Shown: one piece after another, positions 8,806 through 28,551 of the stretch
How positions within the stretch are numbered: the stretch's first letter is position 1
Layout of the letters: the number at the start of each line of letters is the position of its first letter
From: Candidatus Latescibacterota bacterium
GTDB taxonomy: Bacteria > Latescibacterota > UBA2968 > GCA-2709665
Length of the DNA: 64,000 bases
Direction of reading: 5' to 3'
Assembly: GCA_965248435.1 (NCBI GenBank)
Contig: OZ252100.1
Location: 5,369,044-5,433,043 of the forward strand
Notes under the pieces: model-generated
What the model was told of the DNA's origin: nothing
What the model saw: only the letters and a program-made list of their open reading frames with translations
Databases searched by the model: none
Translations under genes and position numbers: made by a program

Positions 8806-8867
8806 CGGGCGTTGTGATAGGATGTGGTTTCTGTTTCCTGTGCATACTGAAGTCTAGAGAAGACCAC

Positions 8868-8904: not shown

Positions 8905-8948
8905 TTAACGATCGATTCAGTACTAGAGTTGAAAGGTGGTGAATACAG

Positions 8949-9161
8949 TTGGCAGCAGGCAGGATAAAGTGGTTTAATGACGCTAAAGGCTACGGCTTTA
9001 TAGAGCAGGAAGGAGGCGAGGACGTGTTCGTCCACTTTTCTGTGATCCAGGGTGAAGGCTTCAAGTCGTTGGCCGAAGGCGAGGAAGTTGAGTTTGACAT
9101 CACGCAAGGGCCCAAAGGGCTCCAGGCGGCCAATGTCATCAAGGTATCGGGAGGCCAATGA
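8949..9161 (+). CDS. cspA: cold-shock protein (CspA family)
   Basis: [30 protein letters not shown] contains the RNP1 (KGYGFI) and RNP2 (VFVHF) motifs. TTG start with AAGGTGG SD. Confidence 0.9.
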
Positions 9162-9189
9162 TCGAAGGTCTTCGTAAGCATTCAATTAC

Positions 9190-9223
9190 ATGCCGACCTC
9201 AAAAAGGGGTCGGCATTTTTTTT
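9190..9223. terminator. bidirectional intrinsic terminator
   Basis: ATGCCGACC...GGTCGGCAT stem followed by a T8 run, between convergent cspA and the UPF0104-like gene. Confidence 0.7.
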
Positions 9224-10253: not shown

Positions 10254-10295
10254 TGCCGCGTTCTCAAGAGTTAGAGTGATGACAAGATGGGGTCA

Positions 10296-11207: not shown

Positions 11208-11214
11208 TACCACG

Positions 11215-12213: not shown

Positions 12214-12587
12214 CGAGGGGATCCCGCGGGAGGGATGAGGATCGCCACGTCTCCTGGTCGCATCGCAGAACCCAGGGCCTTCAGGTCCCATCCTTCGAGT
12301 TCTACGATGTTGAAGTGAGAGGGCGCAGGGAGACCGTCGGGTTGGAGGAGCGTCGCAGGGGCAAAGTAGAGCATCGACATTTCTCGGGGCCCTTCGATCA
12401 GTCGTCCGACGAAGTCAAGCGGCAACGATCTACCGCGTAGCCGGAGGCCCTTATTTCCAAATTCGGGGGTAACCGGATCGATTCTGGTCCTCAGCCGGCA
12501 GAGTTGTGTCTGCAAAGAAGGCTGAACGTGGAAGTCGCGTATTTGGGAGGTTCTTAAAAGGCGCCCTCCGGATTTTAGGTGGACCAC
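12210..12587 (-). CDS. hypothetical protein; true start probably upstream of 12587
   Basis: ORF in the operon between the L,D-transpeptidase and PorV-like genes. The in-frame upstream sequence (to 12809) encodes a signal-peptide-like segment but has no ATG, GTG or TTG. Confidence 0.4.
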   Translation of the reverse strand: MVHLKSGGRLLRTSQIRDFHVQPSLQTQLCRLRTRIDPVTPEFGNKGLRLRGRSLPLDFVGRLIEGPREMSMLYFAPATLLQPDGLPAPSHFNIVELEGWDLKALGSAMRPGDVAILIPPAGSPR

Positions 12588-12772
12588 CCCTGAGGCAAGG
12601 TCGATGACCAGGTAGAAGGTGTCTGAATCTGTATCGATCTGGCGAAGTTCCAGGTCCAGAGCGGATTTCTTATGCTTGAGCTCGTGGCCCTCGAACGATT
12701 CAGCCGATCTCGCGGGCCCGTTGAGGGCCAGCAGACTCAGGATGACAAATAGCGCGGGGATCTGTTTTCCAG

Positions 12773-13387
12773 TTAGTAGATGTATATCGGACTTCCCGTT
12801 TTCACCGTGTTAAAGGTCTTCTCAAGGTCTTCGTCGTTCAAGCGGATGCAGCCGTGTGTAATATGGCGCCCGAGCAGGTGCGGATAGAGGGTCCCGTGGA
12901 TTTCATAACCATCTCCAAGCTCAAGTGCAAATTCCCCGAGCGCTACCGCATCCAACCGCTTAAAGTCCCAGGGCAATACAGGAACTGCCTGACCCCGTTC
13001 TACGAAGGCCCATTCAGGCTTTGCCCACACAGGATCTCGCACCTTTCGTAACACGCGAAACTTCCCCTTGGGGGTCGCAAAGCGCCAGTCTCCCTTCTTA
13101 TGACTCAGCAGCACCTTCCCGCTTCCAGTTGCACAGATGGCTTTTCTGAGGATCCGATTTCGCCGCCGTAATTGAAGCGAATTATGAATGGTATCGATTA
13201 CGATATAAGGTTCATCGTCTGTGTGTTGGTCGAGCGCATCCTCAAGTGCGCGGATCTCTCGTTCCAATTGGGTTACGTCTGGTGTTTCGATGTGCTCAGC
13301 TTTGGAAGGGTCGCGGGCAGAGATTGTATTGGGGATGCATACAATTGCGATTGCAAACAGGAGGGATAGGAGAAGGGATCGGGCCAT
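12773..13387 (-). CDS. L,D-transpeptidase (YkuD domain)
   Basis: Catalytic HGTLYPHLLGRHITHGCIRL (H...S/T-x-GC-I/V-R) and an N-terminal signal peptide. Confidence 0.85.
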   Translation of the reverse strand: MARSLLLSLLFAIAIVCIPNTISARDPSKAEHIETPDVTQLEREIRALEDALDQHTDDEPYIVIDTIHNSLQLRRRNRILRKAICATGSGKVLLSHKKGDWRFATPKGKFRVLRKVRDPVWAKPEWAFVERGQAVPVLPWDFKRLDAVALGEFALELGDGYEIHGTLYPHLLGRHITHGCIRLNDEDLEKTFNTVKTGSPIYIY

Positions 13388-13410
13388 CGCGAGTCTCGGC
13401 CTAAAATCGG

Positions 13411-13442
13411 AAAACCGAGAAGTTCGGCAACTTCTCGGTTTT
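13411..13442 (-). terminator. intrinsic terminator (symmetrical A/T arms)
   Basis: AAAACCGAGAAGTT-CGGC-AACTTCTCGGTTTT perfect stem, 38 nt downstream of the lipoprotein gene that ends at 13480. Confidence 0.65.
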
Positions 13443-13479
13443 CGGAGGAATTCAGCTATGCGTCAGGATGAGAGCCTGT

Positions 13480-14082
13480 TCAAAGCTCGTACCAGGGACG
13501 ATTTTTCTCTTTCCATGTTTCGATTTTCTGCATGGCCGTCTGCATCGCGCCTTGAACCTGACCCAACCTTGACTCGGCGTTTCGTGCCTGGTCCACAGCG
13601 TCTTTGAACCTGCCTGAATTCAGATTTCCCCTGGCATCGCTCAAGCCTGTTTCGACCTGGCCTAAATCGGAACGAAGCTGATCTATATCATCATCGGCTC
13701 CTTTTCCGCGCGGCGCACCGTTGATGGCCGTTCTGGCATCCGTTAGCCCTGTAGAAGTACGGTTAACGATCGCTTGAGCTTCGTCTCTAGACCTTTGTTT
13801 GTTCGCTTCTCCCTCGGACCTTGCTTGATCGGCGAGATCCTTTGCCCTTATGGCAGATGCCTTTGCAGTTTCATAATCCTTCTCCCCTACCTTTGCATTG
13901 GCCTCATCCAGGGCAGTCCTTGCGGATCGGTAGGTATCGGAAGCATAGATGTCAGCTTCCGCATTCTTCGCCTCATTCAGAGACGCTTGAGCCGCGTCCA
14001 GTTCTTGCTGAGGCGGCTGCGCACAACTCATCAAAGTGATAGCCAAACTGAGAACTAGACCCACACTAAGGACAGATCTCAT
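13480..14082 (-). CDS. DUF4398-like coiled-coil lipoprotein
   Basis: Lipobox LMSC. Repeated A..YA...Y..A...L..A pattern (ADIYASDTYRSARTALDEANAKVGEKDYETAKASAIRAKDLADQA). GGAGGGGAGG SD before ATG 14082. Confidence 0.6.
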   Translation of the reverse strand: MRSVLSVGLVLSLAITLMSCAQPPQQELDAAQASLNEAKNAEADIYASDTYRSARTALDEANAKVGEKDYETAKASAIRAKDLADQARSEGEANKQRSRDEAQAIVNRTSTGLTDARTAINGAPRGKGADDDIDQLRSDLGQVETGLSDARGNLNSGRFKDAVDQARNAESRLGQVQGAMQTAMQKIETWKEKNRPWYEL

Positions 14083-14218
14083 CCTCCCCTCCTTTAGTGG
14101 GAAACATGAAGGCGGTAGCACGATCAGGGATAGACCCGAAAAAGCGCGTATCTACAAGCATTGGCAAGAAGATAAAACTAATACGGGGGATTGTCAATAC
14201 AAAAAATGGAGGCAATTG

Positions 14219-14866
14219 TCACTGGACAATATCGCCGTCATCCAGGGTAATAAAGGCGGTCTTTTCTCCGTAGTCTTTTATCCTCCCCCGGTAGCGAATT
14301 TCATCTCCGACCCGCAGATCTTGAAGGACATCCTGCTTTCTCTTATTGAACCGGACGAGGACATCAGATGTCTGGGTAGATGCCAGGTGGCGAATGCTGA
14401 CGTAGGGTTCGACCCCTCCGCCACGATTGATGTAAACGACCGTTCCCTGCCAGATCACCCACTTTCCATTGTAGTTGGCGAATTCGGTCGCCTTCTCCTC
14501 CCGAGAGAGTGTGCTCTCTGGCCCAAATATGGCATTAAACGCATCGAACGTGATTTCTGACCGCGTGGGTGACTGGGCAGTCCTCGCCCTGTGCAGTCTA
14601 TTCCAATTGTAGCTGTAAAAGAGGATCGCGCCGATAATGACCAGATACAAGATCCCCTTCGCCTTTCGGGTCGTGTCCGCTCGTGTGGGCTGACCGCTGG
14701 CGATGCGCTGGAGTCTGTGAATCTCTGCGAGTTTCGCCTGTTCAGTTGGGGTGGGCTCCACCTGGCCTTGCATAACCCCCAACTGACGGTCCAAAAACTC
14801 ACCGCAGAAACGGCACTTCACGGCGTCGTCCTGAATGAGTTCTGCGCAGAAAGGGCACTTTTTCAT
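14219..14866 (-). CDS. zinc-ribbon, single-TM protein with C-terminal beta-rich domain
   Basis: MKKCPFCAELIQDDAVKCRFCGEFL (double CxxC), then TM LYLVIIGAILFYSY. Confidence 0.55.
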   Translation of the reverse strand: MKKCPFCAELIQDDAVKCRFCGEFLDRQLGVMQGQVEPTPTEQAKLAEIHRLQRIASGQPTRADTTRKAKGILYLVIIGAILFYSYNWNRLHRARTAQSPTRSEITFDAFNAIFGPESTLSREEKATEFANYNGKWVIWQGTVVYINRGGGVEPYVSIRHLASTQTSDVLVRFNKRKQDVLQDLRVGDEIRYRGRIKDYGEKTAFITLDDGDIVQ

Positions 14867-15190
14867 GCTGCTCCAATGAGGTGATGGGAGGTCGGCTCAA
14901 AACAAAATATAGGACACCTGCTTTCCCTTGTGCAACACGAATTGGTTTCAACCCCAAGAAGATCCGCCATCGATTTAACAGTTGACTCAAATAAAGGCGC
15001 CCCTCTCCCTTTGTTCGGTCGCCCGCCAGCACGGCTCCTACTCGGGAGAAGGGCGTGTGCCCCGGCTCACCCCGAACCGAGGCTCCTGAGTAAAATTGTA
15101 GGAAAGATCGGGGGCCTAAAATGTGTCAGCGATCACACTTTCGTCGGTTGGGATGCACACCCTCCGGCAGTCGCCCTAGAAACCTCGGGC

Positions 15191-15230
15191 AAACGAAAAG
15201 TGGGCGGCAGGTTTTGACCTGTCGCCCACT
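15191..15230 (-). terminator. intrinsic terminator of the LamG-lipoprotein gene
   Basis: 13-bp stem AGTGGGCGGCAGG/CCTGTCGCCCACT (one G-U pair) followed on the minus strand by TTTTCGTTT. Confidence 0.6.
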
Positions 15231-15253
15231 CTTTGAATGGAATGTTTAGCTGT

Positions 15254-16078
15254 TTAGTCCTTTTCGAGGAGCTTGTTAAGCGGCCGTCGTGGATTCTTCA
15301 GATATATGACATCTTTGTGGGTCAGCATCTTGTCAAAAATTGCGATTTCGTCCAGCTTGCCCGCATAACGGTGGTGGTTAAACCTGACAGTGCGAGCGGA
15401 AATATTCCAAGAGATATTCTGCTGCAGGTTCGTCTTCCGATCTATTTCTGCCCCGTCCACGAAGAGGGCCCATTGCCCGTCGGCCTTGCCGCTGTTAAAA
15501 TTGGACCAGGTAATGACGATGTGATGCCATTCATCCGAATTCCAGTTGATGTCCTCCAAGCGAATGACACGTTCCCGAAGGATCTGGTCAGTTATCTCCT
15601 GGGTCTTATCGGGGTAACAGCCGAAACGAAGGGCATACGGGGTTCTCTTTTTGTCGAAGTCCACGAAAATGACCGCGTCGTCCCATCTCTTTCCAACGTG
15701 AAAAGGTTCGGGGAAATCCGTCTCTAACCCGGCAGGATCGACTGCCAGCCAAAAAGAAACACCCCCGGACCAGGACTGGCTTTCGTCGTAGGGGAAGTTT
15801 CCCATTGCGGTGTAACTCAGTGCCCCAGCCTCACTTTGGAAGGCGACATAGCCATCCACCCGTCCACCGGTTTGAAGATGTTGCGTATGCGCGCCATCGA
15901 GCTCGGCGAGCTCCGAGCCCGTCGCGGTAAGCGCATCAACGCCCTTTTCGAAGTTCGAGAAGAACAGGACGTGCGCGCCGAGGCCTTTTTCTATTTCTCT
16001 CTCTGGCCCACCGCACGCCCAAATCAGGGCCAATGAGGCTACGATAAGGCATCCTGTGTCTACTCTACGTCCCAGCAT
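15254..16078 (-). CDS. LamG/concanavalin-A-like lectin domain lipoprotein
   Basis: Lipobox LIWAC. WHHIVITW...LFVDG...YAGKLDEIAIFDKMLTHKDV is typical of LamG_3 domains. Confidence 0.6.
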   Translation of the reverse strand: MLGRRVDTGCLIVASLALIWACGGPEREIEKGLGAHVLFFSNFEKGVDALTATGSELAELDGAHTQHLQTGGRVDGYVAFQSEAGALSYTAMGNFPYDESQSWSGGVSFWLAVDPAGLETDFPEPFHVGKRWDDAVIFVDFDKKRTPYALRFGCYPDKTQEITDQILRERVIRLEDINWNSDEWHHIVITWSNFNSGKADGQWALFVDGAEIDRKTNLQQNISWNISARTVRFNHHRYAGKLDEIAIFDKMLTHKDVIYLKNPRRPLNKLLEKD

Positions 16079-16171
16079 TTCGAATCTCCTCGTTTGCTGG
16101 CCGGGTCTCAAATGTCGAAGATCATCAATATGTATATATACAAATCAGACAAACCATCCCGCAAGGAGTTT

Positions 16172-17956
16172 CTAGAAGAAATTGAAATCGGTACGGATCG
16201 CCCACGTGTGTTCTCTGGTGTTCCCTCTCTCCCCGCTCGGGAGGGCGAGGTTGTCTCCCAACATGGATTCGTAGGAGACCCGCAGAAGAAGATCTCGGAT
16301 CGGTTCATAAGTAAGCGAAAATCCCAGTCGAGTGCGCTTTTCCAGTATGCCATCCAGGAAGCGTTTACTCGGAGGATCCGAGGGCCTTCTTCCTGCCTCG
16401 GCATCGCCCCCCACATTCTCCAACAAAACCCCCTCCGAACCGATGACATTTTCGCCCTGCCTCTCCCTGTCCAAGGAGAACGCGAACAAGAGTGAAGGCG
16501 AAAAGTGATGGATAACGCGTCCGAATATGCGGTCGGCGTTGGGGCCGACAGGGTAACCCAGCAGAGCATCGAAATGTTCATAGGTGTTGATGGCGAACTT
16601 GTGGGAGTATACAAAGGGCTCCAATCGGACGTATTCCAGGGACAATTCTGTGTCGTGGAGACCGAACGGGTCAACCCATTGGAGTCCGAACTGCAGAGCG
16701 TATTTATTTGCGAATGCCCCGGGGGTGAACTTTTTCAGATCATCGAACAGCACAGCAAAGTAGAGCCAAAGATTTTGTCTTGGATTGCCGCTGAGGTCGA
16801 GGCCAACGAGCATATTGTCATTGTCGCCCAAGTAGGTCTGCGCGGCGGTTAACACGGTCGCTGGGTTGGCGTATAAAAATTCGAGTGACCTGTCGCCGTA
16901 AACGACGGATTCCTGAAGTCCCAGGAGCACTCCTCTGGGGAACGAGACCTCGAACCGATGCGCTGCCAGGTGCTTGGAGCGGCGAAAGGTGCGCAAGTGG
17001 CCGTTGTCGAGTCTGGTTCGAGAGGTATCGATCAGCCCTTCACGCGCACGGGGGAACCCCACGACGTGGATAAACCGAAATCGACCGTGTTCGGCTCTCA
17101 TGCGAACGATCGCGTAGGACGAAGCCTTGTCCGAGAGCAAAAGGTTTCCTGTCCTTCCCGGGCCCCAATCCAGGCTTGTTTTGCCTATGTCAATGTCGAA
17201 CCAGGGCGTTGCCAGGATGAATTGAAACTCGGCCTGGCGGAAGTCGACGGATTTCCCTTTCAACTGGATGTCCTCAATGGGTTTGGCGATCACGTCTCCA
17301 CGGGATAGGCGGACTCGCGTACTCTGTTCCCTGGCTTCGTAATGCCGAACTCGAAACCCAAAGCGATTATGGTAGGTGCCGCGAACGATCGCGCCGAGAT
17401 AGGTTTGAGAAACGATTTCCCGGGCGCGTGCGCCGCCCCGTATCACGAGTACTTGCTCGCGAATCAGCGGGTCCAAAACAAACGCTGCTGAGGAATCCTG
17501 CCAGGCAAAAAGGTTGTTTCCAGACGATATGCGTTCGATAAGGCCGCTCTGATGCGAATCATGAGCCCCCGCCTTACCGAGCGTGGTCAGTTCCCACCTG
17601 AATTCGGCGCGGTGCCTCTCGAGGATACCCCGTTCGGTTTTCGAGAGGCGGCCCCCTGATTCTGCCGTTTGAAGGATATCCAGAAGAAGAAGGGCCGCAC
17701 GATTTCTTGTGAACGGTCGGTGGCCGGGAACGGACTGCTTGAGCCAGCCACGGGCCTGAAATCGGTCGACCGTTCGATAGATGCGATGTGAGAGGGGAAC
17801 GTCCGGGCTTGGATCTTCACCAAAGGCGGGAACTGTGGACAGCGCCAAGCAGGTAAGAACGGTGAAGAGCGATTTCACGGAAAAGTGGACCGTTCGATTC
17901 GGGGAAAGGGGAGAAATTGACCGGATCGAACGAAAATATGAGCACACAACGTACAA
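16172..17956 (-). CDS. Wzi-like capsule-assembly outer-membrane protein
   Basis: N-terminal LSHRIYRTVDRFQARGWL...RPFTRNRAALLL matches the Wzi-family opening. Long beta-rich body ending ...RTDFNFF. The true start is probably internal (VKSLFTVLTCLALS...). Confidence 0.5.
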   Translation of the reverse strand: MYVVCSYFRSIRSISPLSPNRTVHFSVKSLFTVLTCLALSTVPAFGEDPSPDVPLSHRIYRTVDRFQARGWLKQSVPGHRPFTRNRAALLLLDILQTAESGGRLSKTERGILERHRAEFRWELTTLGKAGAHDSHQSGLIERISSGNNLFAWQDSSAAFVLDPLIREQVLVIRGGARAREIVSQTYLGAIVRGTYHNRFGFRVRHYEAREQSTRVRLSRGDVIAKPIEDIQLKGKSVDFRQAEFQFILATPWFDIDIGKTSLDWGPGRTGNLLLSDKASSYAIVRMRAEHGRFRFIHVVGFPRAREGLIDTSRTRLDNGHLRTFRRSKHLAAHRFEVSFPRGVLLGLQESVVYGDRSLEFLYANPATVLTAAQTYLGDNDNMLVGLDLSGNPRQNLWLYFAVLFDDLKKFTPGAFANKYALQFGLQWVDPFGLHDTELSLEYVRLEPFVYSHKFAINTYEHFDALLGYPVGPNADRIFGRVIHHFSPSLLFAFSLDRERQGENVIGSEGVLLENVGGDAEAGRRPSDPPSKRFLDGILEKRTRLGFSLTYEPIRDLLLRVSYESMLGDNLALPSGERGNTREHTWAIRTDFNFF

Positions 17957-18051: not shown

Positions 18052-18080
18052 TTGACAGCTTTGGGGCATTTTGTTATTTA
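18052..18080 (+). promoter_or_regulatory. sigma70-like promoter for the 1583-aa gene
   Basis: TTGACA (18052-18057), 17 nt, TATTTA (18075-18080), ~55 nt upstream of ATG 18136. Confidence 0.4.
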
Positions 18081-18135: not shown

Positions 18136-21100
18136 ATGATGCGAAGAATTGGAAGCGCTGTTCTGTGGATCATCGCGCTTTTCATGCTTTCATCGGTGAC
18201 CGTTTTCAATCCTGGACAGGTCACCGATTGGTTTATCAAGCTGTTCGGCATTCAGCCGAGCAAGCCAGAACTGAGGCCAGTGATCGTCTCGGAGAGAGAT
18301 CGGGAGATCAAAGAGATCGCCGAATCGATCACTGCATCACACCTGCGCGAGACCGTCGGAGCCCTATCCAGTCTTGGGTCAAGGGTCCCTGGGTATCCCG
18401 GACATCGACAGGCCTTTGAGCACATAAAACGTGAGTTTGAGCAAATCGGGCTTCAGGGGATTACTGTAGAGAACGCCGAGGTAACCGTGCCCGTGGATAA
18501 AGGTGCCTCCCTTGTCTTGGCCCTGACCGGCGAAGAGATCCGTCTTTTCGGTCTCTGGCCGAATCATGTCCGGACCCCTTCGCTGCCCGAAGAAGGCGCA
18601 AGCGGGACGCTGATCTATGGCGGACGGGGCAGCTTTAAAGAATTGAACGGAAAACCCGTGAAGGGCGGCATTGTCCTCATGGAGTTCGATTCCGATCAGA
18701 GCTACCTGAACCCACGGATGCTTGGGGCGGCGGCTGTTGTCTTTTACGACAATGGGCGAGTAACCCAGGGGCAGGCGACGCAGAAATTTTTGCAGGTCCC
18801 GGTGGACGTCCCGCGATTCTGGGTAGAAGGGAAAGATGCAGACCGTTTACTGGCTCTGGCTAAAACGAGCGAGCACCAGGTCATCATCAGGTCCAGGATG
18901 GACTGGGAAAGGGTGCCGGCCCCGAACATTTATGGAATCATACCTGGCACGGATGAATACATTTCCGACCGTCGGGAGCGGAAGTGGAAGGACGAGATGA
19001 TTCTCGTCAGCGCCTTCTACGACGCGATCTCCGTCGTGCCGGGGGTCGCGCCTGGCGCCGAAAGCGCTGCCAATGTCGCTGCCCTGTTGGAGACGGCAAA
19101 GGCCTTGAAGAGGAATCCACCGAAATATTCCGTGATGTTCTTGGCCAATGGCTCACACTTCCAGGGTCTTGCGGGCATCAACGACTTTCTCTACAAACAC
19201 TCGCGAGAGAGCGAGCACTTTCGCGAGCTCATTCCTGAACACGAGAAGATCGATTTTCGGCTCTTTATCGGATTCGACCTGTCGAGCGAGATCGACAAGG
19301 TCGCGACATTTTCGCACGCGACCTTCTACAATCCGACCTGGAGGACGAACAACTATGAGAACAACCTCCTGGCCCCTTACGCCAAGAAGTTCGATCAGTA
19401 TGATGCCAGGATTTTTCCAGGGGAAGCGCGCCACATCGATGCGGTCACACCCCCCAAGCGGACCTGGAAGAACTTCATGCCGATTCGTCTGGCTTTCGAC
19501 AGCGAAGCGGTGAAGTTCGTCGGGAAGGAGGGCATCACCTTAGCAACTCCGTCCACGATCCGGGAGCGCGTGGATACCCCTGTAGACAGGGTTGAATTCG
19601 TCAATTTTTCGAACCTGACGCGCCAAGTGCAGGCCTCGGTTGGTCTGCTGCTCAAGGCCGTCGAGGATCCAGAATTTTTCAGAGTATCAAAGTTGAAACT
19701 TGAAGACCTTGGTCACAGCCTAGAGGGCCGAATCCTGTGGTTCGAGCGCGACGTAGATTTCGCCATTCCCAGAGTGCCGGTGCCGGGTGCGATCGTGACC
19801 TACGAACAAATCGGACCCGTGGCGAGCTGCGGAGGCGTGAGAACACTTGTCGTAGAGAAGACTGCGGAAGGGCCGATTTACCAGGGTGATCCTTCGAAGG
19901 GGCCGTCCTACGGGTCGAAGGATGAGGTCGAGGGGACGGGCCGTTTCAGATTTGATATCATGCGCAATCGATTCGACAACAAGATCCTGGCTTATCAGAT
20001 GGACGAAGATGGCCGGATTGTTTCAGCGCCCGACATGGGAACGGAAGGCGACAAAAAGTTCCCCATTCTCCAACGGTACGGCTGGTGGGAAAACGAAATG
20101 ATGGAGGTACTGTTCAAGTGTCGCGCCATCAGTGTGTTCGAGATCATCGATTCGAGCTATCTCTCGGCTCTGGACTATATGACCGTGTTAAACGAAGGGG
20201 ACACCAGACCTATCGAGTATGGTTACCACTACATTGAAAACCAGAGCATGAAAGAGGGAAATGTAACACGCGCGGCCGTGGCGTTTGCCGGTGTGGACTT
20301 CATGACCGGCGAGATAGAGCCTTTGAAGATTCTGATGAGCACGGGTCTATTCGGCGTAAAGTATCTGCTGATCAATGCGCCCCAGGAGTTCCTGGATTCT
20401 CCGGTATCCAAGTGGGATGTGAACCCGGAGATGTTGGAAACGTCTCGAGGCGTCGGATATCCACCGGGCGTCATATTCAACCCTTCCTACCACGCGGCGA
20501 AGGACATGTGGGTCATCGACGATATCCGCATGAAACAGTTAGCTCAGTACGGAATAGAGAACGCCCGGCTTTCTCTTCTGCACGACGCGGCACGTGAGGC
20601 CCTCCTGGAAGCAAATGACCACCTGGAAGCTCAGGAGTACGAGGCATTCATGGCCGCTTCTCGACGGGCATGGGGGCTCGAAGCGAGGGGATATCCGGAA
20701 GTGATGTCCACGGCGAACGACACGGTTCGGGGAATCATCTTTTACTTTATGCTGTTGCTCCCGTTCTCATACTTCTGTGAACGCCTCGTCTTCGGCTTTT
20801 CGGACATCACGCGGCGATTGTTGGGATTCTCGGGTATCTTCCTTGCTTTCTTTATCGTCCTCCGGATGGTGCATCCTGCATTCCAATTGAGCAGCTCACC
20901 CTATATCATCTTTCTTGCGTTTGTGATCATGGCCCTTGGCGGGGTGGCCATGATCATCGTGGTCTCCAAGTTCGGAGAAGAGGTCCGGAAGATGAAGCAG
21001 GCCGCGGCCGGCACCTACGAGGCCGATGTGGGTCGGCTGAGCGCGACAAGTGCAGCGATTGTTCTGGGCATCTCCAATCTTAGAAAGCGCCCGCTAAGGA

Positions 21101-22887
21101 CGGGTCTCACCGCCGCCACACTGACCCTTCTCACATTTACCGCGCTTTCCTTCACATCCGTTCAGACGTCGATCAAGTTTTACCGTTTGCCCAGAGATAA
21201 CAAGCCTGATTACCAGGGGGGACTGGTTCGAGACCGGGCGTGGAAGGGCCTGCAGGAGTCAACGCTGCATTACCTTGAGAGTGCGTTTGGAGAACGTGCG
21301 TTGATCCAGCCACGCGCCTGGTACCTATCCCAGGTCAAAGGGGAAAGGGCCTACCTGGGCTTCGAGCGTATCACTGAGAAATCAGCGGATATGGGGTCGC
21401 GCGACACCTATATCGATTTCGATGTGGGCATCACTACAGGTAAAGACAGCTTCGTTAATGGGCTTTTAGGGCTCACCGATCGGGAGCCCGAAATCACCGG
21501 TGTTGACCGATTCCTGCTGAGTGGGCGGTGGTTCCTCCCGGGCGAGCGGTATGTCTGTATACTGCCAAACGACCTGGCAGAGCTGGTCGGGATCTTTCCT
21601 GAAGACGCCGGGAAGGCGGAGGTCGAGTTGCTGGGGAACGTGTTCACGGTGATCGGGATCGTTGATTCGGAGGCTTTCAACAAATACAAAGACCTGGATG
21701 ACGAACGCCTGACACCCGTGGACATGGTCGCAGAGAGAGACGACCTGGACGATGCGCAGGACCAGGATCCCCGGATCGTGGCATCGGCGCCCATCGAATC
21801 TTTCAATCATTTGGAGTCCACGAATGTCATGATTTTGCCGTATCAGTACGTTCGGGACATGGGCGGTCCACTGAGTTCGATCGCGATCGCCCATTTCGTG
21901 GACGAGCGTGGGCAGTCGAAGGACAATTTCATCCCCGATATCGAGGAGTTCATGACCCGCGTCTCGCTCACGATGTTTGTCGGGCACGCTGAAGGGGTCA
22001 CGGTCTATAGTTCCATCGGGAGCACCTCGCTGGGAGGATTAGCGGGACTGTTTGTTCCGATCCTCATCGCCGCTCTTATCGTGCTGAACACCATGATGGG
22101 GGCCGTCTACGAGCGGTTCCGGGAGATCGGGATCTACTCTGCAGTGGGCCTGGCGCCCAACCACATCGCGGCGCTCTTCCTGGCAGAAGCTGCCGTTTTC
22201 GCGACGATTGGTGCCGTGTTCGGCTATCTCATCGGTCAAGTCATGGTGATGCTGCTTTACGAACGGGGTGCACTCGGAGGATTGGAGCTGAACTACTCGT
22301 CGCTTTCCGCGATTTCAGCCACCCTGATCGTGATGGCCACCGTGTTTCTCTCTACGCTCTATCCGGCGAAGAAGGCTGCCGATATGGCCGTCCCGGACGT
22401 AACGCGAAAATGGGAGTTCCCGGAGCCGGATGGTGACAGGTGGGTCTTCGACTTTCCGTTTACGGTCGGTGGCGGAGAGATCCTGGGTATGTACACCTAT
22501 CTCACGAGGGTATTCGAGTCCTACGGCGAGGGTTCTGTCGGGGATTTCGTGGCTGACAAGGTCCGGTTTACATCCAGAGACCTGCACGGAGAACCACAGT
22601 ATGAGATTCACCTTACAGCCTGGCTTGCCCCCTACGACCTGGGGATCAGCCAGCAGGTCGAACTCCAAGCGATTCCGACGGGCGAATACAACATCTACAA
22701 AATCGAGGTTGTTATTCATCGTCTGAGCGGGGATGTGGCTTCCTGGAAGCGGATCAATCGGGGATTCTTGAACGTGCTTCGCAAAAGATTCCTCGTTTGG
22801 CGAACCATTCCACTTGATGTCAAGCATCAGTATGCCCAGGAAGGGGATCAGGTACTCCGGGGTGAAGCCCAAGAAACAAGCACCTGA
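18136..22887 (+). CDS. giant membrane protein: M28-like/PA ectodomain + extra TMs + MacB/FtsX-type permease module + C-terminal tail
   Basis: M28/PA: HLRETVGALSSLGSRVPGYPGH, GKPVKGGIVLMEF..AAAVVFYDN, ILVSAFYDA..GAESAANVAALLE. FtsX: LRKRPLRTGLTAATLTLLTF ... YERFREIGIYSAVGLAPNHIAALFLAEAAVFATIGAVFGYLIG. Confidence 0.75.
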   Translation: MMRRIGSAVLWIIALFMLSSVTVFNPGQVTDWFIKLFGIQPSKPELRPVIVSERDREIKEIAESITASHLRETVGALSSLGSRVPGYPGHRQAFEHIKREFEQIGLQGITVENAEVTVPVDKGASLVLALTGEEIRLFGLWPNHVRTPSLPEEGASGTLIYGGRGSFKELNGKPVKGGIVLMEFDSDQSYLNPRMLGAAAVVFYDNGRVTQGQATQKFLQVPVDVPRFWVEGKDADRLLALAKTSEHQVIIRSRMDWERVPAPNIYGIIPGTDEYISDRRERKWKDEMILVSAFYDAISVVPGVAPGAESAANVAALLETAKALKRNPPKYSVMFLANGSHFQGLAGINDFLYKHSRESEHFRELIPEHEKIDFRLFIGFDLSSEIDKVATFSHATFYNPTWRTNNYENNLLAPYAKKFDQYDARIFPGEARHIDAVTPPKRTWKNFMPIRLAFDSEAVKFVGKEGITLATPSTIRERVDTPVDRVEFVNFSNLTRQVQASVGLLLKAVEDPEFFRVSKLKLEDLGHSLEGRILWFERDVDFAIPRVPVPGAIVTYEQIGPVASCGGVRTLVVEKTAEGPIYQGDPSKGPSYGSKDEVEGTGRFRFDIMRNRFDNKILAYQMDEDGRIVSAPDMGTEGDKKFPILQRYGWWENEMMEVLFKCRAISVFEIIDSSYLSALDYMTVLNEGDTRPIEYGYHYIENQSMKEGNVTRAAVAFAGVDFMTGEIEPLKILMSTGLFGVKYLLINAPQEFLDSPVSKWDVNPEMLETSRGVGYPPGVIFNPSYHAAKDMWVIDDIRMKQLAQYGIENARLSLLHDAAREALLEANDHLEAQEYEAFMAASRRAWGLEARGYPEVMSTANDTVRGIIFYFMLLLPFSYFCERLVFGFSDITRRLLGFSGIFLAFFIVLRMVHPAFQLSSSPYIIFLAFVIMALGGVAMIIVVSKFGEEVRKMKQAAAGTYEADVGRLSATSAAIVLGISNLRKRPLRTGLTAATLTLLTFTALSFTSVQTSIKFYRLPRDNKPDYQGGLVRDRAWKGLQESTLHYLESAFGERALIQPRAWYLSQVKGERAYLGFERITEKSADMGSRDTYIDFDVGITTGKDSFVNGLLGLTDREPEITGVDRFLLSGRWFLPGERYVCILPNDLAELVGIFPEDAGKAEVELLGNVFTVIGIVDSEAFNKYKDLDDERLTPVDMVAERDDLDDAQDQDPRIVASAPIESFNHLESTNVMILPYQYVRDMGGPLSSIAIAHFVDERGQSKDNFIPDIEEFMTRVSLTMFVGHAEGVTVYSSIGSTSLGGLAGLFVPILIAALIVLNTMMGAVYERFREIGIYSAVGLAPNHIAALFLAEAAVFATIGAVFGYLIGQVMVMLLYERGALGGLELNYSSLSAISATLIVMATVFLSTLYPAKKAADMAVPDVTRKWEFPEPDGDRWVFDFPFTVGGGEILGMYTYLTRVFESYGEGSVGDFVADKVRFTSRDLHGEPQYEIHLTAWLAPYDLGISQQVELQAIPTGEYNIYKIEVVIHRLSGDVASWKRINRGFLNVLRKRFLVWRTIPLDVKHQYAQEGDQVLRGEAQETST

Positions 22888-22916
22888 GTTTTAGCTACTA
22901 ACGTTAAGGGGAAAAG

Positions 22917-24956
22917 TTGGCGACAGAACCGAGGTCAGGGCGTGAGGATGTAAGTCAGTACGAATCGATCATGCCGGATGAGGCGCCCTTCGAAGAGGGG
23001 TTCAACCTGAAGACCGTCTGGGCTATGCTGTTCGTCGGGTTGATCATGCTTCCCGGGGCGATCTATCTGGGTCTCGTCACGGGCCAGAGCATGGCCGGCG
23101 CTTCGGAATGGGTGACGATCATCCTCTTCCTGGAGATCGCGAAGCGATCGTTCGTGAGGCTCAAGACCCAGGAGCTGATCATAATCTACTGGGTGGCCGC
23201 CGGTCTGGTTGGAATCGGCGTCAGATTAGGGATCTCCGGGCACCTCTACGGAGGCCCTTTTGGCAACCTGGTCTGGGACCAGTACCTAATTCAAGCTCCG
23301 GCCGCCAAGGGGTTGGCAGAGTACATTCCCGACTGGGTCGTACCTCCGCTGGAATCGTCGGTCTACGCAGACCGCACGTTCCTGCACACTGTCTGGATCA
23401 AGCCGGTCCTCGTTCTTTTTCTCGTGATGCTCGTCACCAACACCGCTCAGCTTTCGTTCGCCTACGTGATGTTCCGCGTGACCAACGACGTGGAGCGGCT
23501 GCCCTTTCCGATGGAGGCCGTGCACGCCCGCGGCGCCACAGCCCTGGCAGAAACTTCCGCAAAGCAGGAGGGGTGGCGATGGCGCGTGTTCAGCACAGGG
23601 ACGTGTATCGGTCTGATCTGGGGGCTTATCTATGTCGTCGTCCCGACACTGTCGAGCATCTTTCTGACAGATACGGTCCAGATTCTGCCCATTCCTTTCA
23701 TTGACTTCACTGCAGAGATAAAGACGATCCTGCCCGCGGCCATTTTCGGGATCGGGACCGACCTGGGCCACCTGTTCATCGGGATGGTGCTTCCGTTCTA
23801 TGTCGTCGTAGGACAGTTCTTCGGCTCCGTTCTGGCAAATCTTGTGATTAATCCCATGCTCTACGATTACGGCATCTTGCAGCGCTGGTCTCCCGGAATG
23901 ACCTCGGTCCCGGCCCGGATCTCCAACACCTTCGACTTCTGGCTGAGCTTCTCGATCGGGACCTCCCTGGTGGTCGCGTTCACCGGGTTCTACATGGTGG
24001 GCAAGATGCTCCTGGAACAACGACGGACCCGGGGTGCAGGCCCTCGGGCGAAAGGCGTTCCCCAGAGCGATGTTCCGAAAGGGAGAGGGGATGTGAAGTT
24101 GATTTATCCGATCGTGCTATGGGTCATGGCAACGTTTGGGTTCGTCGCAATGTGTCAGATCCTGGTGCCGGAATTCCACTGGGGATGGGTCGTCTTCTTC
24201 GGATTCATTTACTCTCCGATTTCATCTTACATTGGGGCCAGGATGATCGGGCTGACCGGCAGTCCCTATGGGTCCAGCGTCCCTTTTCTCAGGGAGGCCG
24301 CGATCTTCCTTTCCGGCTATCAGGGGGCCGCGGTCTGGTTCGCCCCGCTCCCGCTGCACGATTACGGAAAGATGGTGCGCCCCTTCAAGCAGATGGAGCT
24401 GACCAAGACCAAATTCGGGAGCTACATCAAGATGGTGGCCGCCACGATGGTTGTGATCTTCATTTGCAGCTTCGTTTTCTACGAATTCATCTGGAGGCTG
24501 GGTCCGATCCCCTCATCGACCTATCCCTATGCGGAAACGATCTGGCCCTTCGACGCAACCCTGCAGACGATGTGGATCAAGTCGACGCTTCCTGCTGGAG
24601 AGTTCGGGGGTGCAGCGGGCATGCAGCTGCTGCGCGAGATCATCAAGCCTGAATATATCGGCGCCGGCCTGATCGGCGGTGGCGCTACTTACATTCTCAT
24701 GACTGTCCTCAAACTCCCGACGCTGGCCTTCTTCGGGTTTGTAGGCGGATTGGCCGAGTGGCCGCATTTTGTCCTGTTGATGTTTGTAGGTGCACTGCTG
24801 GGCCGTTTTCACTTCGCGAAACGGTTTGGTGAGGCGAAGTGGAAGGCGTACGCACCGATCCTTCTGGCAGGCTATTCCTGCGGGATGGGGTTAATCGCCA
24901 TGACGTCGATCGCGATCGCCCTGATTTCGAAGGCCGTATCGCAAGTCATATTTTGA
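22917..24956 (+). CDS. OPT-family (oligopeptide transporter superfamily) membrane protein
   Basis: About 16 hydrophobic segments in 679 aa. AIYLGLVTGQS..LKTQELIIIYW and ERLPFPMEAVHARGATALAE resemble the OPT YLGLK.G / E / LPFP.G.A.AE motifs. TTG start, AAGGGG SD. Confidence 0.55.
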   Translation: MATEPRSGREDVSQYESIMPDEAPFEEGFNLKTVWAMLFVGLIMLPGAIYLGLVTGQSMAGASEWVTIILFLEIAKRSFVRLKTQELIIIYWVAAGLVGIGVRLGISGHLYGGPFGNLVWDQYLIQAPAAKGLAEYIPDWVVPPLESSVYADRTFLHTVWIKPVLVLFLVMLVTNTAQLSFAYVMFRVTNDVERLPFPMEAVHARGATALAETSAKQEGWRWRVFSTGTCIGLIWGLIYVVVPTLSSIFLTDTVQILPIPFIDFTAEIKTILPAAIFGIGTDLGHLFIGMVLPFYVVVGQFFGSVLANLVINPMLYDYGILQRWSPGMTSVPARISNTFDFWLSFSIGTSLVVAFTGFYMVGKMLLEQRRTRGAGPRAKGVPQSDVPKGRGDVKLIYPIVLWVMATFGFVAMCQILVPEFHWGWVVFFGFIYSPISSYIGARMIGLTGSPYGSSVPFLREAAIFLSGYQGAAVWFAPLPLHDYGKMVRPFKQMELTKTKFGSYIKMVAATMVVIFICSFVFYEFIWRLGPIPSSTYPYAETIWPFDATLQTMWIKSTLPAGEFGGAAGMQLLREIIKPEYIGAGLIGGGATYILMTVLKLPTLAFFGFVGGLAEWPHFVLLMFVGALLGRFHFAKRFGEAKWKAYAPILLAGYSCGMGLIAMTSIAIALISKAVSQVIF

Positions 24957-25062
24957 AATTCGAGAACATCGTAATCTGATCAATCCATCGCCCGGGTGAA
25001 TCGTTTGCCCGGGCAATTGCATATTGTGGCTTTTGCCCTTAAGGGGTTCGACAGGAGCTTGG

Positions 25063-26448
25063 ATGAACTTCGGCACGGCCCTGAGCAGGATAGAGCGCCC
25101 CTTTACGTTCGCAGTTGTTGGGGATACGCACTTCACAAAAGCAGAGTTTCGCACGAATGCGGGCGACCCGGCACATCACAGCTACGACCTGACCCCTGAA
25201 GGTTACATTGAGAATGTGAGTCTGGTGCTCGCGCCGATGAGGGAGACGCTCAAATCGCTGTCCCCTGAATTCATTGTGATGACGGGAGATCTCGTAGAGG
25301 GGGGGCTCGCGGGCGGGTTTGCCCGGGCAGAGATGTCGGCGTGCCTCAGATTCCTCGATGGCTTTGAAATCCCACTGCTTTTGGCAAGAGGTGACCACGA
25401 TGAATCGGATGTCTTCGGCGACGTCGTGCTTCCTTATTTGTCGAAGCGAATGGGTTGGGAGTTCGCGACTCCCTACTATTTCACGGATGTTGCGGGCTGC
25501 CGTCTTGTCGTCTTCGATACCGGCTCCTGGACGAGCGGATGCGGCCAGTTGGGATGGTTCCAGAAGTTGATGAGAGAGTGTAAGGAGGCCCAGATAGATC
25601 GTGTTTTCGTATTTGGTCACCATCCGATCTGGCCTGTCGCACGTGCCTTTTACACGAAGTATGACTTTCATCGCGAGATTTCTGATGTGTTGGAGAAACG
25701 CTCTGTGGACGCCTATTTCTGCGGTCATACACACAACCAGAGTCTCATCGTTCGGCGTAGCGGCAGCCGGATGACACCTCAAATGATGGCTGCGCCGATC
25801 GGTTTGCCCGAAGAGGTGCCGACGCCGCTGGATCGCGTCCAGGCGCTCCTCGAGGAGCGGGGAGACAAGCCGATCTACTGGCCAGGATACCTTGCCCATA
25901 CCGTGGCAGGTTGGTTTCTGGTTCACGTAAACACAGATTCCGTCCAGGTCGAATGGCATCACGTGAATCGGGGACCCGAGGCCTCGGTTGAATGGCGACG
26001 GGCAGGCGAGATCACCTCATTCTGGCACATGAGTCATCCCCCCGACGCACGAATGATTTCTGCCGACCTGACACGTATTCGTCGAGGGTTCCTTAGATTC
26101 TGTGCTTGGGACGCGACACAGTCTGGAAAGCGCGTTACTCTGAATGGCAGAGAAATCGGGGATTTACCTGAGTCCAACAACTTTACACCCACGAAAATGG
26201 AGCTCCCGTCCTGGGCGCTTGATGAGCTTCGCTTGGAGAATCGATTAGAGATTCATTCACCGGGTTACGAAGCGAGTACCGTAGGCAACCTCGTGCTGGA
26301 GGTCATACTCAGAGGAGGACGAGTGTTACGTACTGGACCTACAGGGGAACTCTTCACCTGGTCGAACAGGTGGGACGAATGGCGGAACCCCAAACTCCAG
26401 AAGCTACGATCAGGCCGTCCCATCATCACTTCGCTTTCATTCCGTTGA
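25063..26448 (+). CDS. calcineurin-like metallophosphoesterase with C-terminal extension
   Basis: AVVGDTHF, MTGDLVEGG, RGDHDE, VFGHHP and CGHTHNQ give the full set of MPE motifs. Confidence 0.8.
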   Translation: MNFGTALSRIERPFTFAVVGDTHFTKAEFRTNAGDPAHHSYDLTPEGYIENVSLVLAPMRETLKSLSPEFIVMTGDLVEGGLAGGFARAEMSACLRFLDGFEIPLLLARGDHDESDVFGDVVLPYLSKRMGWEFATPYYFTDVAGCRLVVFDTGSWTSGCGQLGWFQKLMRECKEAQIDRVFVFGHHPIWPVARAFYTKYDFHREISDVLEKRSVDAYFCGHTHNQSLIVRRSGSRMTPQMMAAPIGLPEEVPTPLDRVQALLEERGDKPIYWPGYLAHTVAGWFLVHVNTDSVQVEWHHVNRGPEASVEWRRAGEITSFWHMSHPPDARMISADLTRIRRGFLRFCAWDATQSGKRVTLNGREIGDLPESNNFTPTKMELPSWALDELRLENRLEIHSPGYEASTVGNLVLEVILRGGRVLRTGPTGELFTWSNRWDEWRNPKLQKLRSGRPIITSLSFR

Positions 26449-26478: not shown

Positions 26479-28551
26479 ATGGCCGACCATCGATTCACGA
26501 ACCGCTTGGTCCACGAGACAAGCCCATACCTTCTACAGCACGCGCACAACCCGGTGGACTGGTTTCCTTGGGGTGAAGAAGCCCTCGCGAAGGCACGTGA
26601 GGAAGACAAACCGATTTTTCTGAGCATCGGATACTCGGCCTGCCACTGGTGTCACGTGATGGAACACGAATCTTTCGAGGATGAAGAGATCGCGCGCGTG
26701 CTGAACGAACATTTTGTTAGCATCAAACTTGATCGCGAAGAACGCCCAGACCTGGATGAGATCTACATGAACGCCGTGCAGATGATGACGGGATCAGGGG
26801 GCTGGCCGATGAGCATGTTTCTTCGTCCTGACTGCCTTCCGTTTTACGGAGGCACCTACTTTCCTCCGGAGAGCCGATACGGCCGTCCTGGGTTTCGCGA
26901 AATCATTGAGGCCGTCGCGCGGCAGTACAAAGAAAACCCAGAGAAGATCGAAGAGGCTTCCTCGAACCTGGTTGCGGGGCTGAAGCGGCTCACCCACTTG
27001 AAGTCGGCAGAAGGGGATTTGAACCCCGATATGCTGGAGGAGGCCTTCTCGAAGATCGCTGGAAATTTCGATCCGAAAAATGGGGGGTTTGGCACACAGC
27101 CCAAGTTCCCGAATACGATGAACCTGTCAGTGTTTTTGAGGGAATACGCAAGAACAGGGAACAAACGTGCAATTGAAATGGTCAGGCTGACGCTTGAAAA
27201 GATGTTCCAGGGTGGGATCTACGATCAACTTGGAGGTGGGTTTCATCGTTATTCCGTGGACGATCACTGGCTGGTGCCCCATTTCGAAAAGATGCTTTAT
27301 GACAACGCACTCCTTGCGAGGCTGTTTCTGGAAGCCTATCAGGCAACCGGAGAGGCCGATATGGCGCGCGTCGTGCGGGAGACACTCGCGTATGTGATGC
27401 GTGAGATGACACATCCTGAAGGGGGATTCTATTCTACACAGGATGCCGACAGCGAAGGTGAAGAAGGCAGGTTCTTCGTTTGGGATCGGGAGGAGGTGAT
27501 CCGACTTCTGGGTGAGGAGGATGGAACGCTTTTCTGTCGGGTTTTCGACGTTCAGGAGGGAGGGAACTTTGAGCAAGGGAAGAGCATTCTTAACATTCCT
27601 GTGGACTTGGAGACCCTGGCCCGGTTTCTCAACGAGGACGTTGGTAGATTAGAGGAGGTTGCGAATCGCGGAAGGAGAGTCTTGTTCGACGCACGAAAGA
27701 AGCGCTTCGCACCGTTCAGAGACGAAAAAGTTCAGACCAACTGGAACGGGCTGATGATATCTGCCTTTGCACTGGCGCATCAGGTCTTTCACGAGCAGCC
27801 GTATTTGGATGCAGCCGAAAAGGCAGCGAACTTCATCCTGGACCGGATGCGAGACGAGGATGGGACCCTGCTCCACACATTCAAGGACGGGCAGGCAAAG
27901 CTGAGGGCGTACCAGGACGACTACGCCAGTTTTATATGCGCACTTATCGATCTTTATGAGACGACGTTTGAAGCACGATGGCTGGAGGTCGCCCTCGAGC
28001 TGACGGAGAACATGCTCGATTCATATTGGGACGATGCTGAAGGGGGGTTTTTCTTCGTTGGAGAGGATCACGAGGCCCTGATCGTGCGGTCCAAAAATCC
28101 TTATGACAACGCACTCCCGTCTGGAAACGCATTGGGGGTCATGGCCCTTCTCCGACTAGGTAGCCTTTTGGGCCGCGAGGATTTCTGGGATAGGGCGGAG
28201 CGGAATCTGAAGCTTTTCGAGCGCAATCTCCAGGAAGTACCATCCGGGTTCGGACATATGCTGTGCGCGCTCTACTACTTCCTGGAGCGTCCCGTAGAGA
28301 TCGCCGTGATCGGGGCGCCGGAACGGAAAGAAACGAAGGCGCTTCTTGAAATTGCATTCAAACGGTGGATCCCCAACCGGGTGATTGCCCTGCTCAACCC
28401 AGGGGATGGGATGCAGGACCTCATTCCATCGGTGCTCGACAAGGCCCAAGTCGATGGGCGACCCACGGTCTATGTCTGCAAAGATTTTGCCTGTTCCGCG
28501 CCCGTCACCCAGCCTGACGATCTGGATGGTCTGCTCGGGGGCAGTCCCTGA
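26479..28551 (+). CDS. thioredoxin-domain protein, YyaL/DUF255 (SSP411-like) family
   Basis: [52 protein letters not shown] is the family hallmark, followed by a six-hairpin glycosidase-like C-terminal part. Confidence 0.9.

Follow-up and report, generated by a model that had tools for sequence, protein, structure and literature searches.

What can a MacB/FtsX-fold permease do when its gene stands beside that of a transporter-like membrane protein, with no gene for a matching ATPase at hand? This question is raised by a 64,000-nucleotide stretch of a Candidatus Latescibacterota bacterium genome (contig OZ252100.1, positions 5,369,044 to 5,433,043), referred to here as the window and numbered from its own first letter. 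Two adjacent open reading frames (ORFs) on the forward strand are concerned. The first (18136..22887, ATG start) encodes BIG, a 1,583-aa MacB/FtsX-fold permease-like protein with a giant ectodomain, and the second (22917..24956, TTG start) encodes TM679, a divergent OPT-superfamily multi-pass membrane protein of 679 aa that begins 29 nt past the BIG stop codon. The TTG start is plausible, since homologues cover TM679 from residue 1. MacB-type (type VII) ATP-binding cassette (ABC) systems are ATPase-driven mechanotransmitters, and their known partners are membrane-fusion proteins, lipoprotein carriers and hydrolase activators. An initial annotation of the window, made from the sequence alone, had proposed that BIG and its OPT-like neighbour belong to one envelope module without an ATPase. 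Our analysis shows that the locus is a conserved two- or three-component envelope module, in which BIG and TM679 very probably form a functional unit.

The evidence for this unit comes from the genomic contexts of BIG homologues, which were collected from genomes (33 loci), from metagenomes through a search with a profile of the BIG tail (80 loci) and, in several cases, from assembly look-ups. The tail-profile search returned mostly contig-end fragments, which were used as entry points to the contexts. A locus was counted when it included the 3' end of BIG together with no less than 2.5 kb of sequence beyond it, giving 98 loci. A TM679 homologue lies downstream of BIG on the same strand in 79 of them, within 300 nt in 61 and with a DUF6785/6784 gene in between in 13. 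One locus of the 98 has the homologue upstream, 11 have DUF6785/6784 alone beside BIG, and neither gene was recorded in seven; L040 is among these seven through a filter artefact, a homologue being present there. The linkage persists down to about 37–55% BIG identity and survives large insertions in either protein. It is kept where genes have been inserted between the pair (L017, L019 and L048), in the 1,737-aa and 2,768-aa variants of BIG, and in loci labelled Zixibacteria or simply 'bacterium'. The gene order is permuted in L003 and L124, where the TM679 homologue lies upstream of BIG; a 633-aa gene directly 3' of BIG in L003, considered as a TM679 counterpart, is unrelated, and the true homologue is the upstream one. 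Many relatives also carry a DUF6785/DUF6784 paralogue-like protein besides TM679. Taken together (79 loci downstream, one upstream, 11 with DUF6785/6784 only, and survival of order permutations), these contexts bear out the proposal that BIG and the OPT-like gene are one conserved unit. In the literature searched, neither a curated family nor a paper was found that describes this architecture or has an OPT-fold protein as the partner of a MacB-type permease, in agreement with the initial annotation, which knew of no described system of this kind.

The module also occurs in more than one copy per genome. In L124, from the 5.46-Mb genome of a close relative, positions 8023-16623 hold a second module composed of a DUF6785/DUF6784 protein (654 aa), a TM679 paralogue (662 aa) and a BIG paralogue (1,541 aa), and FG-GAP/beta-propeller proteins follow it. 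Second copies of BIG were also seen in two metagenome-assembled genomes (MAGs; L024 and L028).

BIG itself belongs to a sizeable family. More than 245 full-length homologues of about 1,530–1,620 aa were found, mostly in Latescibacterota MAGs, with some bins labelled Gemmatimonadota, Planctomycetes, Zixibacteria, Poribacteria or Armatimonadetes; the names given to them at source do not go beyond 'M28 family peptidase' or 'FtsX-like permease family protein', and the mean column identity of the family is 58% over 25 sequences. BIG is also present in closed Latescibacterota genomes, among them OZ240239, OZ244937 and OZ252228. The 1,737-aa and 2,768-aa variants keep the M28/PA head, their additional residues being located at aa ~590-602. 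Two assemblies of long-read metagenomes (L039 6000-10513 and L040 3227-10591) show BIG split into three to four consecutive ORFs, and in L039 TM679 is split into two; these splits are probably frameshift errors rather than gene fission.

From the N to the C terminus, BIG is composed of a signal anchor, an M28/PA head, about 390 aa of ectodomain that could not be assigned, three transmembrane (TM) helices, a MacB/FtsX module with four TM helices, and a cytoplasmic tail of 175 aa, all segments being given below in forward-strand coordinates of the window. The topology was read from the sequence by a hydropathy scan and the positive-inside rule. The signal anchor (aa 5-23; 18148..18204) shows a hydropathy peak of 2.18 and is preceded by MMRR, which implies that the N terminus is inside; the ectodomain that follows it measures about 840 aa. 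Hydropathy peaks and the positive-inside rule then place three additional TM helices at aa ~867-942 (20734..20961), which return the chain to the cytoplasm before the MacB/FtsX-type module (aa ~970-1408; 21043..22359). A basic cytoplasmic linker containing LRKRPLRTG provides the N-terminal amphipathic helix before TM1. TM1 itself lies at aa ~989-1008, where the hydropathy scan is below threshold, a periplasmic loop of about 290 aa separates TM1 from TM2, and TM2, the coupling helix, TM3 and TM4 together span aa 1299-1408.

The assignment of this module is supported by profile searches, as the initial annotation had expected. Pfam FtsX (PF02687) matches aa 1306-1416 with E 2.7e-14 and 53.7 bits, well above its cut-off of 25.5 bits; the NCBIfam models of MacB, LolC, FtsX and ADOP give partial matches, all far under their cut-offs; and the PDB sequences matching aa ~1285-1420 are YtrF, MacB, LolC and LolF. 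MacB_PCD (PF12704) is a precomputed match in some homologues and none was obtained on BIG of the window, where the topology of TM1, loop and TM2 fits this domain. The coupling helix between TM2 and TM3 reads ERFREIGIYSAVGLAPNH, and its residues E1326, R1327, E1330, I1331, G1338, A1340, P1341 and H1343 are invariant across 25 sequences. Both strings that the initial annotation had quoted, LRKRPLRTGLTAATLTLLTF and YERFREIGIYSAVGLAPNHIAALFLAEAAVF, are found in BIG, and the domain anatomy it had drawn stands overall, with three extra TM helices instead of three to four, a loop of about 290 rather than 330 aa, and a tail of 175 as against about 170 aa.

The N-terminal head (aa ~46-480; 18271..19575) is an M28 aminopeptidase-like domain with an inserted PA domain, as seen with Pfam and an N-terminal profile. 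Pfam Peptidase_M28 matches aa 283-419 (E 2.4e-7; 31.1 bits against a cut-off of 21.3) and passes, and Pfam PA matches aa 171-238 (E 1.6e-4) at 22.2 bits, just below its cut-off of 23.9. PDB sequence matches over aa ~46-360 are the PA-containing aminopeptidases YwaD and 2ek8, and the N-terminal profile of BIG retrieves from the PDB the aminopeptidase 2ek8 (E 1.1e-12), YwaD and nicalin (E 1.7e-3). The active site was read from alignments to 2ek8, YwaD and the Vibrio aminopeptidase, taking as the canonical M28 set the ligands His, Asp, Glu, Asp/Glu and His together with the catalytic Glu; the last two ligands are not alignable in BIG. The canonical co-catalytic zinc ligands and the catalytic Glu were not found at the alignable positions. 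The first zinc-ligand His aligns with F294 (23 of 25 family sequences have Tyr or Phe here), the bridging Asp with E309, and the catalytic/ligand Glu-Glu pair with H341-F342, which is invariant in the family. Because BIG carries replaced catalytic residues, its profile gives a better score to 2anp, the E151H mutant of the Vibrio aminopeptidase, than to the wild type. An active aminopeptidase with the canonical di-zinc mechanism was thus rejected, the zinc and catalytic residues being replaced. The replaced positions E309, H341, F342, D381 and E457 are themselves invariant in the family, and the pocket is therefore conserved but remodelled; a metal, or a ligand, may be bound there. In nicastrin, nicalin and the transferrin receptor, degenerate ectodomains of the M28/PA type serve as receptors for substrates, and by analogy with these proteins we infer that the remodelled pocket of BIG would fit a binding role rather than an enzymatic one, in line with the binding ectodomain that the initial annotation had suggested.

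Two further parts of BIG are conserved and match no known family. The ectodomain at aa ~481-866 (19576..20733) has many invariant residues, a helical C-terminal end and lineage-specific inserts at aa ~590-602, and a profile of aa 470-866 found no match in Pfam or the PDB. The cytoplasmic tail (aa 1409-1583; 22360..22887) is an alpha+beta domain that forms a signature of the BIG family: 55 of its columns are invariant in 17 sequences, and it is the most conserved part of BIG besides the FtsX helices. No credible match was obtained with the tail profile (aa 1408-1583) in Pfam or among PDB sequences; matches to SAKe designed Kelch-repeat proteins were discarded, consisting of one 21-residue stretch that is repeated, with none passing alone. 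An AlphaFold2 (AF2) model of the tail reached a mean predicted local distance difference test score (pLDDT) of 84.3 and a predicted template-modelling score (pTM) of 0.82, and shows the order beta, alpha, four beta strands and two alpha helices. A Foldseek search of this model against the PDB returned nothing at E<=1e-3, the best hits, to PsbP and to folds of the START/Bet v 1 type, having E>2e-3 and template-modelling scores under 0.41. A degenerate nucleotide-binding domain was rejected as an identity for the tail, the modelled beta-alpha-beta4-alpha2 order not being that of a P-loop fold.

The identity of the partner protein rests on structure and on intermediate sequences. By sequence, TM679 found no match in Pfam, NCBIfam or the PDB (phmmer), nor did a 24-sequence profile match the PDB, and Pfam OPT (PF03169) gave no match at E<=10 on TM679 and 23 homologues. 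Its AF2 model is of moderate confidence (pLDDT 63, pTM 0.62). Foldseek against the PDB returned two significant matches for this model, both to barley Yellow Stripe 1 (7wst and 7wsr) and both over the full length. For 7wst the match has E 2.7e-9, probability 1.00, template-modelling scores of 0.54/0.60 and 678 aligned columns, the next match having E 0.31, and the identity of TM679 to HvYS1 is 13%. Searched against 1.84 billion representatives, the TM679 profile retrieved 1,054 clusters, 392 of them at E<=1e-30. Pfam OPT was then checked on ten sampled full-length matches (E 1e-60 to 1e-240); four passed its cut-off of 25.8 bits and the other six had no match. The four, P0436, P0445, P0499 and P0365, score 54.2, 44.8, 37.4 and 28.9 bits on Pfam OPT and have E values of 4e-84 to 1e-240 with the TM679 profile; the OPT alignment covers the whole model in three of them and only the C-terminal part in P0365 (28.9 bits). 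Some homologues with 73% identity to TM679 carry a precomputed PF03169 match, as does the partner gene in the distant locus L122, the partner in L001 has a weak OPT match (E 1.5e-3), and several homologues are named 'peptide transporter' by NCBI. At the level of predicted fold and transitive homology, TM679 is a divergent member of the OPT superfamily. The initial annotation of the downstream gene as OPT is thus upheld by the fold match to HvYS1 and by the intermediates that pass Pfam, with TM679 itself under the Pfam threshold.

The third component, DUF6785/DUF6784, shows remote homology to TM679 over the full length (hhalign 90.5%, E 1.4e-6, 568 columns). Pfam PF20581/PF20580 (DUF6785/DUF6784) gave no match to TM679, either with the single sequence or with 24 members. 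None of these genes occurs in the 64-kb window, nor within 10 kb of the module in its close clade. DUF6785 is a family without known function, and no relevant paper on it was found in a literature search. Many TM679 homologues are larger, at 811–1,083 aa, with an insert at one loop corresponding to TM679 position ~556-572 (L001 12715-15579; L037 13304-15769; P0361-P0396). L001 has a Reg_prop beta-propeller at this place (E 9e-17), and the L037 insert weakly resembles an agarase carbohydrate-binding module (CBM).

Does BIG have an ATPase? The only ABC ATPase in the window, 45190-46137, belongs to a GldA/F/G-like ABC-2 system, and tblastn and Pfam confirm the initial annotation, which had named the GldA-like gene at 45190 as the sole one. 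These two methods were used in place of a Walker-A/LSGGQ regular expression, which missed this ATPase; the match that the expression gave at 31012 is a guanylate kinase and a false positive. Beyond the window, five of the 98 loci (L001, L039, L040, L056 and L057) carry an orthologous ATPase of 245–270 aa inside the BIG cluster. These cluster-linked ATPases are 58–69% identical to one another and 24–30% identical to the GldA-like protein of the window; their best families are LolD, MacB, DarD, YbbA and FtsE, and their best PDB matches MJ0796, LolD and MacB. The LolD/MacB type is the type of nucleotide-binding domain (NBD) that serves FtsX-fold permeases. In L001 and L056 the gene order is BIG, TM679, a protein of about 300 aa without known family, a PqqD-like protein, a minimal FtsX permease of 227/228 aa without a periplasmic domain, and the ATPase. 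L040 has the same order minus the minimal FtsX, and in L039 the ATPase lies upstream; no second FtsX-type permease was found in the fetched locus of either. This accessory set downstream of BIG-TM679 (L001 15586-18524; L056 11167-14468; L040 13030-15565) is present in a minority of lineages, with the ATPase at 17757-18524 in L001 and at 14753-15565 in L040; it may supply the motor sought for BIG, or may constitute a small export system of its own.

The coupling-helix motif does not vary between aligned members with a linked ATPase, represented by P0039, and those without one, and the tail is also present in ATPase-linked loci, which were themselves retrieved through the tail query. Given the ATPase inside five clusters, an unvarying coupling helix and the presence of the tail alongside this ATPase, BIG most likely uses a LolD/MacB-type ATPase. 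The gene for it is probably encoded elsewhere in the source genome, outside the window, and we consider it reasonably likely, judging from these sequences, that such an unlinked ATPase drives BIG. Tabulated over the 98 loci, homologues are not usually adjacent to an ABC ATPase and the OPT pairing is conserved. The description of the module as 'ATPase-less' therefore stands as a statement of gene order, valid in about 90% of loci, and is weakened as a statement of mechanism by the in-cluster ATPase in five of 98 loci, by the invariant coupling helix and by a tail that is not a P-loop domain.

The best explanation that we can offer, and one that we regard as evenly poised, is a conserved inner-membrane module of Latescibacterota and allied uncultured bacteria in which BIG is driven by a LolD/MacB-type ATPase and hands a substrate to or from the OPT-like permease. 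BIG would be the permease subunit of a type VII ABC system (MacB/LolC/FtsX fold) and would work as a MacB-type mechanotransmitter. A dimer of the LolD/MacB-type ATPase would dock on the invariant coupling helix, and BIG would probably be dimeric, pairing with itself or, in loci that have the minimal FtsX, with the latter. ATP-driven movements could then be relayed to the periplasmic head, repositioning the pseudo-aminopeptidase receptor. The head would bind a periplasmic or membrane-surface substrate, maybe a peptide-like one, and the substrate would be passed to or from the OPT-like permease as the path across the inner membrane, in either direction. Three features suggest a peptide-like substrate, namely the M28 fold of the head, the membership of the partner in the OPT family and the PqqD-like companion; an imported peptide is a tentative candidate, and somewhat doubtful.

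Several observations weigh against this explanation. No LolD/MacB-type ATPase was found in the 64-kb window by regular expression, tblastn or Pfam, and no ABC ATPase was found within 10 kb in about 90% of the 98 loci by a Walker-A/LSGGQ scan together with tblastn searches started from ABC ATPases. The ATPase of L001 and L056 adjoins an FtsX-type permease of its own, the minimal protein of 227/228 aa, as well as a PqqD-like gene; the cluster ATPase might thus work for this small permease and be found beside BIG only occasionally. The Reg_prop beta-propeller or weak CBM-like inserts in some partner proteins and the glycan-related genes that are frequent neighbours hint at a non-peptide substrate, and because of them a glycan is kept among the possible substrates. 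The loci counted are not phylogenetically independent, and the physical interaction of BIG with TM679 is a prediction from synteny, with a TM679 model at pLDDT 63. Part of these points would suit a true orphan, that is, a BIG that never binds an ABC ATPase and serves as a passive receptor or scaffold, or whose conformational cycle draws on the OPT-like partner, presumed to be proton-coupled, or on the cytoplasmic tail. The scarcity of ABC ATPases near BIG, which extends to the flanks of the second module of the close relative, speaks for such an orphan, as do a partner that is always present and is an OPT-like protein rather than an ATPase, and a highly conserved, novel 175-aa tail on the cytoplasmic face, at the side where an NBD would dock. 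We nevertheless rate this alternative as rather unlikely, given that an orthologous LolD/MacB-type ATPase is embedded in five loci, two of them without another FtsX permease, that the FtsX coupling-helix motif of the NBD-docking type is invariant, and that tail and ATPase co-occur; unlinked ATPase genes are, moreover, common for FtsX-type permeases, for example in the ADOP 'orphan permease' family. It is unlikely, too, that BIG and the OPT-fold protein or proteins form one physical machine of an undescribed kind, a MacB-type mechanotransmitter whose pseudo-peptidase receptor head and permease are joined directly to a secondary-transporter fold. In such a machine a proton-driven OPT-like subunit would take over the supply of energy from the ABC ATPase, or periplasmic capture powered by ATP would be linked to translocation through the OPT-like protein in a hybrid primary/secondary transporter, and the tail would mediate the coupling.

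The pair could also be conceived as an FtsEX-like or nicastrin-like device for regulation or recycling, whose ectodomain senses or positions envelope material, for example peptidoglycan stem peptides or a glycan, while the OPT-like permease imports the fragments set free and the BIG tail might signal. Receptor roles are known for the degenerate M28/PA ectodomains named above, nicalin being among the PDB matches of BIG, and FtsX-type proteins are known to control periplasmic hydrolases; envelope genes for a YkuD L,D-transpeptidase, a Wzi-like protein and Laminin_G_3 lie nearby in the window, and the Reg_prop or CBM-like inserts of some partners would also suit this role. These envelope neighbours are, however, not conserved beyond the close clade, no conserved hydrolase partner accompanies the pair, and nothing in the data identifies the ligand, all of which makes such a device quite unlikely. 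That BIG and TM679 are mere syntenic neighbours, an inherited order without functional coupling, appears highly improbable. Many loci come from one phylum, and shared ancestry inflates the counts, but the adjacency holds at 37–55% BIG identity, after inversion of the order with the partner upstream (L003 and L124) and after gene insertion (L017, L019 and L048), when the partner is swapped for, or joined by, the related DUF6785/6784, and in both paralogous modules of one genome.

The genes around the pair were analyzed in the same way. Downstream and co-oriented with TM679, Pfam identifies a metallophosphoesterase (25024-26448, +) and a DUF255 thioredoxin-like/six-hairpin protein (26479-28551, +). 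The metallophosphoesterase ORF starts at 25024, 67 nt past TM679, and its homologues align from residue 14, which gives a distance of 106 nt, exactly as initially annotated. Both genes follow TM679 in close relatives, where BIG is at least 68% identical, and are not found beside more distant BIG/TM679 pairs. They were accordingly rejected as parts of the module, the linkage being confined to the close clade, and are probably not core components. Upstream of BIG, a promoter-like TTGACA-17-TATTTA is present at 18052..18080 (+), as initially noted, and the idea that BIG has its own promoter is not borne out to the same degree: the -10 hexamer agrees with TATAAT at three of six positions, a promoter scan does not list the site, and the four promoter-like sites found in the region correspond to chance level (4.5 +/- 2.3 expected), leaving the motif weak and not established as a promoter.

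Divergent to BIG and upstream of it, Pfam places a block of envelope genes on the reverse strand (12773-17956, -), comprising a Wzi-like outer-membrane protein, Laminin_G_3, a zinc-ribbon/tRNA_anti-like protein, DUF4398 and a YkuD L,D-transpeptidase; its synteny is partial and seen in close relatives only. Farther downstream, 43286-49696 (+) holds a MoxR-type AAA ATPase and a DUF58/VWA protein, followed by the GldA/F/G-like ABC-2 system (ABC_tran, ABC-2 permease, ABC_transp_aux and DUF4340). A full-model match to the SAM_alpha riboswitch (SAM-II, RF00521) was found at 58307-58382 (+), with 46.2 bits against a gathering score of 36, directly upstream of a gene for a Cys/Met-metabolism pyridoxal phosphate (PLP) enzyme (ORF 58460-59647). 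The SAM_alpha family is named for Alphaproteobacteria, and the genome here is Latescibacterota-like.

If BIG is linked to an OPT-fold permease throughout its family, type VII systems would gain a further functional class, distinguished by a pseudo-aminopeptidase head of the nicastrin kind and by a cytoplasmic domain not seen before. Function could for the first time be approached in three uncharacterised families, namely BIG, the TM679 branch of OPT and DUF6785/DUF6784, and the link would bear on the uptake or export of envelope-proximal substrates by abundant uncultured sediment and marine heterotrophs, the Latescibacterota and their allies. Should the module truly run without an ATPase, BIG would be a MacB-fold protein with another source of energy, and the first of its kind.

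Compared with known systems, each component comes from a known superfamily (type VII ABC, OPT and M28/PA), and no curated-family threshold is reached apart from those of generic domain models. With the type VII ABC systems MacB, LolCDE, FtsEX, YtrEF, YbbAP and BceAB, BIG shares the FtsX domain over TM2-TM4, the basic amphipathic helix before TM1, a predicted large periplasmic domain between TM1 and TM2, and the coupling-helix motif ERxREIG...G. It differs from them in the ectodomain of about 840 aa (pseudo-M28/PA plus the unassigned domain) and the four extra TM helices that precede the module, in the conserved 175-aa cytoplasmic tail that follows it, in the lack of a fused or adjacent ATPase in most loci, and in a near-constant partner of the OPT fold, in place of a membrane-fusion protein, lipoprotein or hydrolase activator. 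From FtsEX in particular it is set apart by scores of 17–21 bits on the FtsX NCBIfam models against cut-offs of 250–255, and no FtsE or EnvC/PcsB-like gene occurs in the BIG neighbourhood. ADOP (TIGR03434), the 'duplicated orphan permease', comprises FtsX-type permeases whose genes have no adjacent ATPase gene, and BIG shows a weak partial match to it (E 5.6e-4); ADOP proteins, in contrast, have two FtsX modules and no M28/PA head, tail or OPT partner, and the 18 bits obtained by BIG stay far below the cut-off of 622.

On the side of the partner, TM679 resembles the OPT/YSL proteins (PF03169; YS1, 7wst) in its full-length fold match, in a size of about 650 aa and in the intermediates that reach Pfam OPT, whereas TM679 and its close homologues stay under the Pfam OPT threshold and the identity to HvYS1 is as low as 13%. 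We know of no characterised OPT protein that pairs with an ABC-type permease. The DUF6785/DUF6784 proteins (PF20581/PF20580) are alike in their size of about 650–660 aa and in their position beside BIG homologues, with TM679 or in its place. The head of BIG, finally, is comparable with nicastrin, nicalin and the transferrin receptor, which likewise combine an M28 fold with a PA (apical) insertion, have lost the canonical metal and catalytic residues and are attached to a membrane machine; unlike these, the BIG head is bacterial and forms one chain with a MacB-type permease.

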